A DNA stretch of 4,787 nucleotides from a virus (IMGVR_UViG_2698536549_000024), one strand, 5' to 3'; counted from the first letter of the stretch, positions 1-4,787 are shown. A program made the numbers and translations. Notes: a model not told the origin generated them from the letters alone.

Positions 1-2295
1 CCGTTTCTCATCCAGTACCGGCGTCACCTGAATGCTGTTGTTTCCGGCAAACTCAAAAGCCAGTGTGTGCCATCCGTTATCAAAGACCCCGAACGTATCC
101 AGCTTCGCATTCTGCTTCTTGTGGTACATCGCGTTCAGGTTCGTCGCATCCGTCTGCAGGAAGAAGGACATCAGCATGTCGTTGCCTTCCTCTGACAGCG
201 TCACTCCCTCCGGCAGGGACGACAACTGCCAGTAAATACCCAGGGCAAACTGATTCGGCACCAGTGCGCCCGGCACCTTAAACCGCACGCTCACACGTCC
301 GCCTTTCTTCAGCAACTCTGCCCCCTGCCCTGCGGCATCATGCTCCAGAAACCAGATGTGGCTTTCCGGTTTGTTCAGTTGCAGGGCCTTACCACCGGTG
401 GCACCCTCATCACTGACCACAGCCTCAGCGATGTTTTTATTAACACTGTCTCCGCTCGCCGGTTTGTGATAATAGCGCCAGCCCTGTGATGCCAGGTCTT
501 CACCGGACGCCAGCAGACTNNNNNNNNNNNNNNNNNNNNNNNNNNNNNNNNNNNNNNNNNNNNNNNNNNGTCACCTGAATGCTGTTGTTTCCGGCAAACT
601 CAAAAGCCAGCGTGTGCCATCCGTTATCAAAGACCCCGAATGTATCCAGCTTCGCATTCGGCTTCCTGTGATGCATCGCGTTCAGGTTCGTCGTATCCGT
701 CTGCAGGAAGAAGGACATCAGCATATCGTTACCTTCTCCTGACAGCGTCACCCCCTCCGGCAGGGACGACAACTGCCAGTAAATGCCCAGGGCAAACTGA
801 TTCGGCACCAGTGAACCCGGCAACTTAAACCGTACACTCACACGTCCGCCCTTCTTCAGTAACTCCGCCCCCTGTCCGGCTGCATCATGCTCCAGAAACC
901 AGATGTGGTTTTCCGGTTTGTTCAGTTGCAGAGCCTTACCTCCCGTAGCCCCCGCATCACTGACCACCGCTTCAGCAATGTTTTTGTTAACACTGTCTCC
1001 GCCCGCCGGTTTGTGATAATAGCGCCAGCCCTGTGATGCCAGGTCTTCACCGGACGCCAGCAGACTCATCAGGGTTCGGTTACTGACCGGGGCTTCCGCC
1101 TCTCTCTCCGGACCTTCACCGGAAGGTACGGTGGGCCTCACCATATCAGGCTGTTTTCCGGTAATGAATTCAGCGGTTCTCCCGGCGTGCACCAGAATCG
1201 CCGTTGCCAGACGGTCGGAAATAATCCCCCGGCGAGCCCAGGTGCTGAAATGGCTCGCCCTGTCCTGTGACGTCCAGGTGGCTGAGCTGTCACGCCATTT
1301 CGAACCGTAATACCCGATACCCGGAATGTCCGGGTCTTCTTCCGGTTTGTTCGTCGGCACATTCACCCCGTTCTCATCCGTCATGAACGGTACGAAATGG
1401 ATATTCTTTTCCGTTTTGTTTTTATAGCTGCCGTACACCATCTGGTAGGTGGATTCGTTCTTCTGCTTCCAGAAATACGTCGTGTCCCCGCATATCCAGG
1501 GAACACCGCCAGCAGAGCCACCAACGCACTGACCTGCCATATCCGTCAGGTCTGCACGGAATTTATCAACCAGCGCACCAAACTGTGCTGCGTGATTTCC
1601 GGGCGTGCCGTCAAAATCAAATTCCCCCTGCATCCACACCACGGCAAACAGCACATTTTTCGGGTTCTTCTTCAGTGCTGCTTTTGTTCGACCGATAAGG
1701 TCCTTATACAGCGGCTTGTCCACACCCCAGCGCGCTGAATTCTCCGAGGCACCACTCGCGTCACTGTATGTGCCATCAGCTCCGGTGGTGAACGCTGAAC
1801 CACCACGACAGCACGGAACCAGCAGAATACCCGCATTCGCCGGTATAAACGGCAGCAGTTTTTTGGCGATATGCAGCCCCTGCCCCACNNNNNNNNNNNN
1901 NNNNNNNNNNNNNNNNNNNNNNNNNNNNNNNNNNNNNNNNNNNNNNNACTGCGGCGCGCCAGCTGCTTAATACGCGGGTCCGGACGGTCATATGTCTCCG
2001 GCAGCGGAAGACCTTCACCATACGACATGCCATTTGACTGCCCTGCCAGAACCACAACAAAGTAATACTCCGGGTCGCTGGTGGCACTGACAGCCACCGC
2101 CTTACCCTCATTACCGGTCACCGCCACTGGTGTGGTGACATCACCTTCCGCCGCAATGGCCTGCATCAGGGTATAAGGCGTGATGACCACCGGACTGCCA
2201 AATGGCTGCCAGCCCTCCTTCAGTTTTTGTGTCAGTCGTTCAGCAAGGTCTGACGGCGATGCCGCCCTGACCACATCGTAGTGTTTAAATGCCAT
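1..2295 (-). CDS. nanS-p: Prophage-type sialate (9-O-acetyl-N-acetylneuraminic acid) O-acetylesterase, NanS-p-like; 3' end runs off the window; interrupted by two N-runs
   Basis: Seen: ATG is the reverse complement of cat at 2293-2295, preceded by GGGAGG with a 4-nt spacer. The N-terminus MAFKHYDVVRAASPSDLAERLTQKLKEGWQPFGSPVV... continues to ...YYFVVVLAGQSNGMSYGEG. After the 1889-1947 gap the frame stays open from 1888 to the 520-569 gap and, by my hand translation, continues open to position 1 (...NNSIQVTPVLDEKR). Established knowledge: GQSN is the catalytic-serine block of the SASA/SGNH sialate O-acetylesterase family, and the N-terminal region resembles the DUF1737 segment of phage NanS-p proteins. 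Inference: assignment is from recalled motifs, not a search. The track splits this gene into ORFs 1672..2295 and 500..1888 only because the N-run lengths shift the frame. Confidence 0.75.
23..519 (-). repeat. Intragenic tandem duplication, copy 1 (distal, C-terminal copy of the duplicated domain in the esterase gene)
   Basis: Seen: 23-519 aligns base-for-base with 570-1066 at a fixed offset of 547 nt. I counted about 38 mismatches over 497 aligned bases (about 92% identity). Minus-strand translation of copy 1 (SLLASGEDLASQGWRYYHKPASGDSVNKN...NNSIQV) is about 93% identical to copy 2. Confidence 0.9.
520..569. other. N-run (50 nt): assembly gap or mask at the junction of the two intragenic repeat copies
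   Basis: Seen: 50 consecutive n. Codon phase on the minus strand differs on the two flanks (lowest codon coordinate is 2 mod 3 above the gap and 1 mod 3 below). Continuity therefore needs a true length of 1 mod 3, such as 49 or 52, not 50. Confidence 0.95.
570..1066 (-). repeat. Intragenic tandem duplication, copy 2 (proximal copy)
   Basis: Seen: same alignment as copy 1. The two copies are separated only by the 520-569 N-run. Most differences are third-position or conservative, so both copies stay open in frame. Confidence 0.9.
1889..1947. other. N-run (59 nt): assembly gap or mask inside the esterase catalytic domain
   Basis: Seen: 59 consecutive n. Complete codons abut both edges (1948-1950 above, 1886-1888 below), so an intact gene needs a gap length divisible by 3; 59 is not. 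Confidence 0.95.
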
Positions 2296-2494
2296 GAATC
2301 CTCCCGGCCGGGATAATGTTCTGAGTCAGAGAAGGCACGGACTGACCTCCGGAAACACAAAAGTCACACAGAAAAACAGCCCGCAAAAAAGAAATACGCC
2401 CTTACAGTTGCGCAAGGTGATTACTCTAAGGTATTATTAGGGTGCTGAATAAATTACTTCACGTTTTGTTATTTATTCCTTGCTTCCTTGCCAA

Positions 2495-2521
2495 CCGCTC
2501 TTCCCGGGAGCGGTTTTTTTT
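2495..2521 (+). terminator. Candidate Rho-independent terminator, plus strand
   Basis: Seen: stem ccgctc (2495-2500) pairs with gagcgg (2508-2513) around a 7-nt loop, followed by T8 (2514-2521). Confidence 0.5.
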
Positions 2522-2527
2522 ACATGT

Positions 2528-2552
2528 AAAAAGGCTCCTGCGATGAGGAGCC
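2528..2552 (-). terminator. Candidate Rho-independent terminator, minus strand (T0), convergent with the plus-strand terminator
   Basis: Seen: on the minus strand, hairpin ggctcc / 8-nt loop / ggagcc (2533-2552) is followed by T5 (reverse complement of A 2528-2532). It is separated from the plus-strand terminator only by ACATGT. Confidence 0.45.
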
Positions 2553-2801
2553 TGGATGTATGCCTAATCTCTGTATACTGCAGGTGCCGGGTGCCTCCCG
2601 GTGAACAAATGTCCGTGATATCAGTCGGCCACACAGGAAATGATACGATATCACCCCTCCGCACAGGGGGATTCACCATGCCCGTTTTTTTTAACAAACT
2701 CCTCATCAATCAGACAATCATCAACCTCATGAATTGTGAGGAATTTAACATTTCACAACACAGCCTTTTCCCTGCATAAAAAAGCCCCTCCGGAGAGGGG
2801 C
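2553..2801. repeat. Non-coding repeat unit R1 (complete) of a tandem array with about 260-bp period
   Basis: Seen: conserved blocks shared with R2 and R3. Hairpin X tgccgggtgcctcccggtg (2585-2603); hairpin Y cccctccgcacaggggg followed by attcaccATG (2654-2680); block Z gaattgtgaggaatttaacatttcacaacacagccttttccc (2731-2772); then A6 plus a GC hairpin (2778-2801). Confidence 0.85.
2778..2801 (-). terminator. Strong candidate Rho-independent terminator, minus strand (T1)
   Basis: Seen: 7-bp GC-rich stem gcccctc/gaggggc with a 4-nt loop (2784-2801), followed on the minus strand by T6 (reverse complement of A 2778-2783). On the plus strand the same hairpin is followed by ttcgct, which is not a U-tract. 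Confidence 0.7.
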
Positions 2802-3061
2802 TTCGCTACGTGTCTGTTAACCATATGCATGATGCCGGGTGCCTCCCGGTGAGTTCAGTATCAGCACCTGAACCCGCACAGAAAGGATAGAGTAGAAACA
2901 CCTGCGCTGATATGCCCCTCCGCTCAGGGGGATTCACCATGCAGAACTTTTTTAACAACTCCCCCTCAGACAGGCAAGCATCAACCATCTGAACTGTGAG
3001 GAATTTAACACTTAACAACACAGCCTTTTCCCGCACAAAAAAAGCCCCTCCGGAGAGGGGC
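2802..3061. repeat. Non-coding repeat unit R2 (complete)
   Basis: Seen: hairpin X at 2833-2851 (identical to R1), hairpin Y at 2915-2941 (cccctccgctcaggggg attcaccATG), block Z at 2991-3032 (cacttaacaacacagccttttccc), then the terminator hairpin. Block spacing to R1 is 248-261 bp. Confidence 0.85.
3037..3061 (-). terminator. Strong candidate Rho-independent terminator, minus strand (T2)
   Basis: Seen: the same gcccctccggagaggggc hairpin (3044-3061), followed on the minus strand by T7 (reverse complement of A 3037-3043). Confidence 0.7.
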
Positions 3062-3280
3062 CGATCGCTATGTATACACCATAAGCAGCATAGTGCCGGG
3101 TGCCTCCCGGTAGATTCAGCCTGACTACTGAATCTGCGTATTGTGACCATCGCTATGGAGACCATGTCAGACGCCCCTCCGCACAGGGGGATTCACTATG
3201 CTGGCTCGTTTTTACAAGACTTCCATCGATCAGACAATAGTCCATCAACCGAATTGTGAGTCATTTAACATTTCCATGAG
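3062..3280. repeat. Non-coding repeat unit R3 (truncated and diverged: lacks the CA-rich motif and the terminator)
   Basis: Seen: hairpin X at 3094-3111, hairpin Y with ATG at 3174-3200, partial block Z gaattgtgagtcatttaacattt at 3251-3273. Homology is lost after about 3275. Confidence 0.75.
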
Positions 3281-3519: not shown

Positions 3520-3798
3520 TTATCCACGGGATATAATTTTGATTTCATCAAAACCGTTACTACCTGCAATTCTGTTGTACTCCTGAACAAGACTCAGTAA
3601 CTCCGAATTAGCCGCGGTGAACTCCTCACAGACGTTCCGAAGTGCATCTACATCCAGAAGAACCATCTCCTGACCTGAACGTCGATCAGGGGTACAAAAT
3701 AAAACTGTCAGACGACTGAAGACCTTTGTTCGTTCCACATTGACGGCTTCAATACGCTGTAACAGTTGGCTACATCTGATTTTCTCATCAATATTCAC
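3520..3798 (-). CDS. Hypothetical protein (92 aa), function unknown
   Basis: Seen: open frame with a GTG start (reverse complement of cac 3796-3798), weak GGTG Shine-Dalgarno, TTATAAT about 18 nt upstream. The translation is protein-like but I recognise no motif. It is co-oriented with and 89 bp downstream of the AraC-family gene. Start codon is uncertain. Confidence 0.4.
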   Translation of the reverse strand: MNIDEKIRCSQLLQRIEAVNVERTKVFSRLTVLFCTPDRRSGQEMVLLDVDALRNVCEEFTAANSELLSLVQEYNRIAGSNGFDEIKIISRG

Positions 3799-3887: not shown

Positions 3888-4613
3888 TCAGATAACGTCT
3901 GCTTTCTGCAAATATGCATAGCTCTCAGGTGGTGCACCATAATACTGGTGAAATACAGAAATGAAATAGGACTTACTTGAGTAACCACATTTTTCCGCTA
4001 TCGCTTGTCCACACTCTCGCTGGAAACATACAAGATTAACAGCAACACGCATTCGCTCCTCCAGCAACAACCGACTAAAGCTATAACCTTCATCCTTAAG
4101 TTTTCGCTTCAACAAGCTTTCGCTCATATGCAATTGTAATGCAATCACACCTAGCATCCAGCCTGCCGATATGTCGGTCTGAATTATAGCCCTTACTTTA
4201 CAGCTGATATTATTTACAGCACCGGACAAAAATAATGGCAGACGCCTGTCTGTTGCAAATAAGGAGATACATGAAAATGCGGTTATAACAGAGAAATCCT
4301 TCAAAGTATCACTGGATTCACTATGCTGGGTTATTAAAGCCTCCGCCAGTTCCGTATTGTAAATATCAGACATCAAATAAAGAGGCATTTTTGTCGGTGT
4401 ATACTCCGTCAGTTCACACTCCCTTTCCAGATACTGATTGACGACGCTGTTACTTATATCTGCCATTTTCACTCTGTCGGCATAAGCACAGAAAAGCCCT
4501 CTTATATTTCTGGCAACAAGCATAACACTTCCGGCATCGAGTGAAACTTTTTCTTTTTCAAGAAAAATATCTATCGGATAGCGAATCAGGACCACAGAGC
4601 AGGCAACATCCAT
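3888..4613 (-). CDS. AraC/XylS-family transcriptional regulator, GadW/YdeO/GadX-like (comparable to prophage-encoded regulators of the PsrA/PsrB/PatE type)
   Basis: Seen: 241-aa ORF. The N-terminus MDVACSVVLIRYPIDIF parallels GadW MTHVCSVILIRRSFDIY and YdeO MSLVCSVIFIHH as I recall them. The C-terminus has a canonical AraC double helix-turn-helix (SESLLKRKLKDEGYSFSRLLLEERM...IAEKCGYSSKSYFISVFHQYYG). Local composition is clearly AT-rich. Inference: which named paralogue it is cannot be decided without a database comparison. Confidence 0.88.
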   Translation of the reverse strand: MDVACSVVLIRYPIDIFLEKEKVSLDAGSVMLVARNIRGLFCAYADRVKMADISNSVVNQYLERECELTEYTPTKMPLYLMSDIYNTELAEALITQHSESSDTLKDFSVITAFSCISLFATDRRLPLFLSGAVNNISCKVRAIIQTDISAGWMLGVIALQLHMSESLLKRKLKDEGYSFSRLLLEERMRVAVNLVCFQRECGQAIAEKCGYSSKSYFISVFHQYYGAPPESYAYLQKADVI

Positions 4614-4676: not shown

Positions 4677-4787
4677 TTACTTCTGCAAACCGCTCCCGCT
4701 AAATACATCCCTGATTTCCTGCGCAGTCTGTTCAAAACGCCCGGTATCCAGCTCAACGCCAGTTGCACGACGCCCCAGCGCCATCGC
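4677..4787 (-). CDS. 3' end of an unidentified upstream gene (last 36 codons; partial at the window edge)
   Basis: Seen: minus-strand frame open from the window edge to TAA (reverse complement of tta 4677-4679), giving ...AMALGRRATGVELDTGRFEQTAQEIRDVFSGSGLQK*. The segment is GC-rich, unlike the adjacent AraC gene. A short independent ORF starting at the internal Met cannot be excluded. Confidence 0.4.
   Translation of the reverse strand, partial: AMALGRRATGVELDTGRFEQTAQEIRDVFSGSGLQK

Follow-up and report, generated by a model that had tools for sequence, protein, structure and literature searches.

Why should a phage gene stand behind three terminators that point the same way as the gene itself? 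The question is raised by a 4,787-nucleotide (nt) viral stretch, IMGVR_UViG_2698536549_000024 (the window, along whose whole length our coordinates count), in which a sialate O-acetylesterase gene starting at 2295 on the minus strand is preceded by three strong, co-oriented intrinsic terminators. A first-pass annotation had placed these terminators within a few bases of where we find them and had read them as a stack with no convincing local promoter, in the Q-to-lysis interval of a lambdoid phage. We found that the array is not a bare one: each terminator is the 3' end of its own gene of the STnc100 small RNA (sRNA) family, and each gene has its own promoter-like element and CRP-like site. 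We are fairly confident that 2522-3270 on the minus strand comprises three head-to-tail paralogous sRNA genes, whose RNAs would be terminated in the lysogen and whose terminators would be read through with the help of Q on induction. The terminators are as follows.

3036..3062, minus strand: terminator of sRNA copy 3; stem 3062..3043 with 8 pairs (6 GC), then TTTTTT; -18.4 kcal/mol in a local fold.
2778..2803, minus strand: terminator of sRNA copy 2; stem about 2803..2784, U-tract 2783..2778 (TTTTTT); -22.6 kcal/mol.
2527..2553, minus strand: terminator of sRNA copy 1; stem 2553..2532 with 8 pairs (5 GC), then 4-5 T; -14.3 kcal/mol.

The whole window holds 13 terminator-like sites compared to 4.2 ± 2.3 in shuffled sequence, and the three array terminators, predicted to be efficient, rank among the best. 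For copy 2, the consensus scan caught 2798..2785, the inner portion of a longer stem. The hairpins lie about 260 bp apart and are homologous portions of a head-to-tail direct repeat of that length, indicating that the number of terminators reflects duplication and not three separate acquisitions. When compared to the Rfam model RF02076 (gathering score 47 bits), every repeat unit gave a match spanning model positions 1-206, in which the terminator is the final element of the covariance model.

3035..3230, minus strand: STnc100-family sRNA gene, copy 3 (distal); 119.5 bits, E=1.1e-26.
2772..2971, minus strand: STnc100-family sRNA gene, copy 2 (middle); 141.2 bits, E=2.9e-32.
2522..2710, minus strand: STnc100-family sRNA gene, copy 1 (adjoining the esterase leader); 132.1 bits, E=6.5e-30.

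The predicted RNAs run from about 3201 to 3037 (about 165 nt) for copy 3, from about 2942 to 2778 (about 165 nt) for copy 2, and from about 2681 to 2527 (about 155 nt) for copy 1. Each unit consists of a CRP-like site, a weak sigma-70 promoter-like element, a structured core of about 110 nt, a tail of about 25-30 nt and a strong intrinsic terminator. Mean column identity among the three copies is 76%; the differences cluster in a variable helix and in the 3' tail, and the promoter, the CRP half-sites and the helices P1, P2 and P5 are kept. The 3' tail and terminator of copy 1 are of the 933W type, as judged by alignment to 933W and to locus L127. Two other identities for the repeat were considered and rejected. 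It is not like a tRNA or tmRNA, as ARAGORN finds none, and it is not a duplicated late-promoter/terminator module (pR'-tR', like lambda 6S RNA), since the unit of 933W lies downstream of stx2B, far from the annotated pR'/qut, and the unit sits 500-1,200 bp or more from Q in other phages.

The family is known to be expressed. EDL933 carries 11 dispersed STnc100 copies that are transcribed without induction, one of them Northern-positive (PMC5331693), and Stx2 phages have one copy 75 nt downstream of stx2 (PMC12370729). A position beside nanS-p esterase genes has also been reported for STnc100. STnc100 is related to the Hfq-dependent sRNAs PasD1 and PasD2 of enteropathogenic E. coli (EPEC), and PasD is linked to Q and to sialic-acid esterase genes (bioRxiv 10.64898/2026.05.13.724894); the Hfq dependence of PasD was reported by Pearl Mizrahi 2021 (PMC8550237).

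We then examined whether the units fold as RNAs. In predicted folds, the closing stem P1 encloses four helices and the tail is single-stranded, differing between copies; the core has the STnc100 pattern of a closing stem enclosing the hairpins GAAUCCCCCU..GCGG.GGGG and CCGGGAGGCACCCGG together with the variable helix. Copies 3 and 2 fold more stably than their shuffles (z=-3.7 for each); the fold of copy 1 is weaker (z=-1.2). A search of species-representative genomes with an 18-mer from one hairpin returned more than 120 contigs, nearly all from Enterobacterales, and a profile built from the units of the window then picked out about 125 cores in 85 loci, from which a strict motif filter selected 46 diverse cores for a consensus. 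The RNAalifold consensus of these 46 has 26 pairs, 15 of them with compensatory changes: P1 (6 pairs, 5 with compensatory changes), the hairpin GAAUCC-CCCU..GCGG.GGGG, a short long-range helix, the variable hairpin P4 (7 pairs, all covarying), and a last hairpin CCGGG-AGGCA-CCCGG. An independent count found P1 to be 87% paired across 63 distinct stem combinations, compared to at most 78% in 1,000 shuffles. The same is seen within the window, where the closing stem of copy 3, GCAUAGUG/CACUAUGC, is kept by a compensatory G>A / C>U change relative to GCAUGGUG/CACCAUGC of 933W and of a fourth copy in E. coli N51; P1 of copy 2 contains a G-U pair.

Upstream of the three cores we found the following.

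3209..3237, minus strand: promoter-like element of copy 3; -35 TTGTCT (3237..3232), 17-nt spacer, -10 TAAAAA (3214..3209); predicted start about 3201/3202.
2949..2977, minus strand: promoter-like element of copy 2; -35 TTGCCT (2977..2972), 17-nt spacer, -10 TAAAAA (2954..2949); predicted start about 2942.
2688..2717, minus strand: promoter-like element of copy 1; -35 TTGTCT (2717..2712), 18-nt spacer, -10 TAAAAA (2693..2688); predicted start about 2681.
3255..3270, no strand assigned: CRP-like site of copy 3, TGTTA-N6-TCACA, centred at about -61.5 from the predicted start.
2995..3010, no strand assigned: CRP-like site of copy 2, centred at about -60.5 from the predicted start.
2735..2750, no strand assigned: CRP-like site of copy 1, centred at about -61.5 from the predicted start.

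The promoter call rests on comparative position and not on strength of consensus, and a simple minus-strand promoter scan at threshold 8 gives essentially no matches. The element of the window units, TTGyCT-17/18-TAAAAA, aligns with the PasD2 promoter TTGACT-18-TAAAAA, and the RNA-seq-estimated 5' end of PasD2 (NC_011601:741157) is the first base of P1, 7 nt past TAAAAA. In 66 of 138 family copies, the best sigma70-like site begins 10-19 nt before the core, and in other genera this position holds the near-consensus TTGACA-17-TAAAAT or TATTAA. We therefore think that local sRNA promoters probably exist, each feeding a terminated RNA of about 160 nt. The assertion that the locus has no convincing local promoter thus holds for the esterase leader (2296-2527), where we likewise see only weak -35/-10 matches and no minus-strand match of at least 9/12, and fails for the interval as a whole, in which a conserved promoter-like element precedes every unit. 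By this placement, the first ~29 positions of the RF02076 model appear to be promoter DNA and not RNA. On the plus strand, promoter-like matches at 2691-2718 and 3211-3238 (TTAACA/TTTACA-16-GACAAT) overlap the sRNA promoters in reverse and point into the CRP-like site and the preceding terminator; these may simply mirror the A/T-rich promoter region.

Allowing at most one mismatch to TGTGA-N6-TCACA, the window has exactly three sites, one per unit, compared to 0.14 expected, and none of 200 shuffles reached three. The sites agree with the consensus core at 9 of 10 positions, and across 16 E. coli-type copies the half-sites are kept while the spacer between them varies. At class I CRP promoters, such as lac, the site is centred near -61.5. 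The predicted starts and sites suggest that the sRNA units are possibly under CRP control of the class I type. Most likely the array fires constitutively or conditionally, and its terminators would serve first to end the sRNAs.

To place the array among its neighbours, we used the E. coli N51 locus (L001 in coordinates below), which has 0 mismatches to the window over 1,015 bases compared, together with seven other phage or prophage loci. In N51 the order is RusA, Q, tRNA-Ile, tRNA-Arg, a TolA-like gene, the fourth STnc100 copy, a methylase remnant, an AraC-like gene, the triple array, the esterase, holin, lysozyme, Rz, terminase and portal, all co-oriented, which bears out the lambdoid Q-to-lysis layout proposed at first pass. 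Extending the view upstream, as had also been proposed, located the Q antiterminator 4.1 kb upstream (L001 5445-6134; PF06323, E=7e-91), with a promoter-like TTGCAA-17-TATATT overlapping the 3' end of Q (L001 6118-6146). The fourth STnc100 copy (L001 7257-7527) lies just past the right end of the window, after the TolA-like gene, and is followed by its own convergent terminator and a leader-type hairpin (L001 7539-7560 and 7629-7644), as if insertion of the AraC-like moron and the triple array had left an esterase leader in place. The order of Q, sRNA, esterase and lysis genes recurs in 933W, an Stx1 phage, PhiR5_1, phiSTEC1589-Stx1c, 1720a-02 and E2348/69 PP2, and in Superficieibacter electus a three-copy array stands directly upstream of lysozyme and Rz.

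The expectation that the esterase is made mainly on induction is borne out for relatives only, in that nanS-p rises by 1-2.4 log with mitomycin C (PMC10462455) and z1466 is among the genes most induced by norfloxacin (PMC8065619). Antitermination of the esterase by Q, the central proposal of the first-pass annotation, is plausible as textbook lambdoid behaviour. The capsid of phi24B is reportedly decorated by a processed esterase (bioRxiv 10.64898/2026.04.10.717836); if a NanS-p homologue is a virion component, placement in a late operon would be expected.

We propose that a discrete RNA of about 155-165 nt would be transcribed from each unit promoter in the lysogen and would end at the terminator of that unit, possibly under cyclic AMP (cAMP)-CRP. 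As a by-product, the three terminators and a weak hairpin in the leader would stop transcripts from the sRNA promoters and from upstream morons, such that transcription of the AraC-like gene and of a 92-amino-acid open reading frame (ORF) would not reach the esterase or the lysis genes. After induction, Q protein from its gene about 4 kb upstream would render late-promoter polymerase terminator-resistant, and the modified polymerase would pass the tRNAs, the morons and each of the four sRNA terminators and continue into the esterase, holin, lysozyme and Rz genes. The size of the array would change by unequal crossover within the conserved core motifs.

Several points weigh against this account. 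The -10 element TAAAAA lacks the final T that is usually critical, and the conserved block TGTTAAATT could instead be read as an extended -10 (TGtTAAATT) giving RNAs of about 220 nt. We consider this less likely than a CRP half-site because 933W and 1720a-02 have TGTAATCTG at that position yet keep TCACA, and because the block sits exactly at -61.5 from the start predicted from PasD2. Q and the late promoter are taken from N51, identical over the 1,015 compared bases, and lie outside the window, and the published induction data were obtained with Stx2a phages that carry one sRNA copy. ACCGGGAGGCACCCGGCA is invariant across genera by construction, having served as the search pattern. Finally, copy 1 is one nucleotide shorter than in strain S19-141 through a deletion in the 3' strand of P1, folds no better than its shuffles, and therefore may be impaired. 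This last point, together with the rarity of the triple array (about 10 of 5,426 complete E. coli genomes) and the presence of one, two or three copies among near-identical prophages through simple unequal crossover, would suit a history in which the extra copies are recent neutral duplicates of one functional sRNA gene, with one copy or none still functional. We regard such a history as distinctly unlikely, as the copies share only 76% column identity with differences confined mostly to the variable helix and the 3' tail, P1 of copy 3 is kept by a double change, and other genera also have arrays of 2-6 cores.

It is very unlikely, in our judgement, that the hairpins only block transcription into the esterase and lysis genes and that the repeat yields no RNA of its own. 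Strong, co-oriented terminators are indeed present, and insulation of the lysis genes is plausible; however, each hairpin ends a full-length match to a curated sRNA family with compensatory changes across genera, a promoter-like element is conserved upstream of each unit, and family members are transcribed and Hfq-associated in published work (PMC5331693, PMC8550237). More credible, although still doubtful, is that the esterase is not strictly Q-dependent, and that a leader promoter or leak from the CRP-type sRNA promoters ties its basal level to carbon status. Uninduced nanS-p transcript is measurable in all tested strains but one (PMC10462455), and prophage nanS-p genes allow EDL933 to grow on Neu5,9Ac2 (summarised in PMC8065619). 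Of the three terminators, the proximal one is also the weakest; three CRP-like sites face the esterase, and we read a weak GTGAAG-18-AATAAT in the leader that is conserved in several phages. However, that leader is without a promoter match of at least 9/12, 933W lacks the AATAAT block and still co-induces the gene with stx2, and the stretch from the array to the ATG holds one more hairpin with a T-tract as well as a convergent antisense unit. The basal signal could equally reflect spontaneous induction in a subpopulation. We retain three sRNA genes with their own terminators and predicted promoters, with probable Q-mediated read-through on induction, as the best account of the locus.

We next compared the size of the array among prophages. 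933W, the Stx1 phage, PhiR5_1 and 1720a-02 each have a single unit immediately before the esterase; phiSTEC1589, S19-141 and LZSFT34 have two, and the window and N51 have three. Removing 3196..2938 from the window gives the S19-141 sequence, and removing 2829..2583 gives that of LZSFT34; each deletion amounts to one unit with breakpoints inside conserved core motifs, which points to unequal crossover. The count of about 10 genomes given above is for single-piece, full-length matches to the 1,225-base interval, and no isolated phage record matched this interval in full. Among species representatives, 13 of 98 clusters are same-strand arrays of 2-6 cores. In Pantoea (L103 3238-3645; also L093, L110, L041 and L055), 3-6 STnc100-like cores are spaced at 115-135 nt, and Pantoea rodasii (L103) has three cores with linkers of about 20 nt and a single common terminator. 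These Pantoea arrays look like multi-core transcripts and not like separate genes, as judged from their layout. A 2026 survey describes multiple PasA and PasD copies as distal, not tandem (bioRxiv 10.64898/2026.05.13.724894), and our literature search found no report of such tandem STnc100 arrays.

How does the array compare to known systems? It resembles STnc100 in its full-length matches, core fold, terminator and Q-lysis slot directly upstream of nanS-p, as in 933W, and differs in having three head-to-tail copies about 260 bp apart with divergent helices and tails, whereas all 11 copies of EDL933 are dispersed. PasD1 and PasD2 of EPEC E2348/69 are reported to be homologous to EcOnc13 of enterohaemorrhagic E. 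coli, on which a literature search found no paper. Their structural relation to STnc100 is described in bioRxiv 10.64898/2026.05.13.724894. With PasD the window shares the slot (Q, sRNA, SASA esterase, holin), the closing stem GCAUGG/CCAUGC, the P2 hairpin and the promoter position. In contrast to the window units, PasD2 has neither the P5 hairpin nor a CRP-like site, its -35 (TTGACT) is better, and a scan of its locus gave no PasD2 match at or above the RF02076 gathering score. The window copies fail to reach PasD at the level of BLAST identity, and alignment yields a common core and promoter only; the tails of the window copies lack the seed UUGUGAG, which PasD2 has before its GGCUGCGCAUUGCGCAGCC terminator, and the terminator differs as well.

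The order, orientation, presence of Q and several intrinsic terminators are those of a Q-dependent late operon (pR'-tR', stx and other morons, nanS-p, S-R-Rz), except that the window terminators are predicted to end independently promoted sRNA genes and are not leader terminators of the tR' type. Tandem sRNA genes such as OmrA/OmrB and PrrF1/PrrF2 have been cited for comparison (bioRxiv 10.64898/2026.05.13.724894). They likewise are adjacent paralogues with a common scaffold and terminator, and with divergent regions that fit diversified targets; the window array differs in being prophage-borne and variable in copy number between strains. PasD2 is also the most abundant partner in CsrA-bound RNA chimeras in EPEC (bioRxiv 10.64898/2026.08.12.744399). 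In the window, GGA motifs, a crude test for CsrA, number 3-4 per RNA of about 160 nt, near chance by rough estimate, and lend CsrA binding no support. As a more speculative and rather improbable extension, the conserved STnc100 core of about 110 nt may be a tandem-multiplied scaffold that mainly binds and titrates, or else recruits, a global RNA-binding protein (Hfq and/or CsrA), with array size, as fixed by unequal crossover, tuning dose and, in E. coli, a cAMP-CRP switch. Such a scaffold would be built as separately terminated genes in E. coli and Superficieibacter and as several cores per transcript in Pantoea, with the tail giving target specificity, and would link carbon status, the host post-transcriptional network and, via read-through, the sialic-acid esterase.

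That a late-region gene behind terminators needs Q is textbook for lambdoid phages, and the induction of nanS-p has already been published. What the locus adds is a correction to annotation: small-RNA genes crowd the supposedly non-coding spacer ahead of prophage esterase genes, and the three STnc100 paralogues and the putative convergent antisense unit are unannotated in the RefSeq records examined. The feature is real and built of known components (an Rfam family, a genomic slot, late-operon logic) in a tandem arrangement that is apparently undescribed; the tandem array, its contraction by unequal crossover, the arrays in other Enterobacterales and the CRP-type promoter geometry may be new. 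If the array, the CRP-type promoters and the copy changes hold true, strains would differ in the dose and repertoire of an Hfq-interacting prophage sRNA family to which the relative PasD2 adds a CsrA link, and virulence-related regulation in Shiga toxin-producing E. coli and EPEC could be affected. Intrinsic terminators of late operons would then often be the ends of sRNA genes, and not dedicated regulatory terminators.

Between the array and the esterase lie a conserved leader and, on the opposite strand, a candidate RNA.

500..2295, minus strand: SASA/NanS-p-type sialate O-acetylesterase gene; ATG at 2295, MAFKHYDV...; interrupted by N-runs.
2296..2521, minus strand: esterase leader (226 bp), conserved among Stx and lambdoid phages by alignment.
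2444..2521, plus strand: putative antisense small RNA of about 78 nt; terminator stem 2493-2515 followed by a T-run; abuts copy 1 convergently.

The leader has GGGAGG 5 nt upstream of the esterase ATG, which we read as the ribosome-binding site. It also holds a weak sense-strand hairpin (2417..2400) followed by the T-rich GCGTATTTCTTTTTT; this feature (2417..2385) aligns with the terminator of PasD2 in E2348/69, and CCTTAGAGTAATCACC beside it resembles the PasD seed region CCUUGUGAGUUCUGG. The alignment suggests that PasD may descend from a locus of the STnc100 type in which a deletion joined core and leader. For the antisense unit, a start is predicted from TTGCGC-18-TATTAT (2408-2437), and its U/G-rich body (…CACGUUUUGUUAUUUAUUCCUUGCUUCCUUGCC…) would run antisense to the esterase leader. 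The unit is like AsxR (RF02703, 88 bits in 933W) in lying on the opposite strand at an equal position and abutting the STnc100 terminator convergently. Its body differs, however, and an AsxR/AgvB identity was rejected, as there is neither a sequence nor a covariance-model match to either RNA (no Rfam match at E<=1 over the whole window or at E<=10 in 2280-2560). Inside the putative unit, at 2476-2491, is a perfect 8-nt tandem duplication (TTCCTTGC twice) that is absent from the other phage leaders aligned.

The identical esterase gene of N51 has DUF1737, SASA and DUF6645 domains. In the window, N-runs occupy 520-569 and 1889-1947, the latter a 59-base run replacing 132 bases of the N51 gene. 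Bases 23-519 are a repeat of 570-1066 with 92.8% identity and correspond to another part of the gene (coding-sequence positions 1303-1821, 92%), such that the left end of the window resembles a scaffolding join with a paralogous allele of nanS-p and not genuine tandem sequence. In the gap between esterase and holin, N51 has a strong 13-pair intrinsic terminator (L001 12492-12520, plus strand) immediately before the holin gene, in the slot that the literature gives to PasA/PasC; possibly this too marks the 3' end of an sRNA within the late operon. Upstream of the array, about 1.2 kb without long ORFs separate the 92-amino-acid ORF from the esterase start, and the moron cluster comprises the following.

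3798..3520, minus strand: hypothetical ORF of 92 amino acids, widespread in E. coli; the RefSeq record is without annotation.
4613..3888, minus strand: AraC-family regulator of 241 amino acids (HTH_18/HTH_AraC), its exact sequence present on about 1,000 contigs.
4680-4787, minus strand: C-terminal remnant of a DNA methyltransferase.

The AraC-like regulator is named 'activator of adiA' by some sources.

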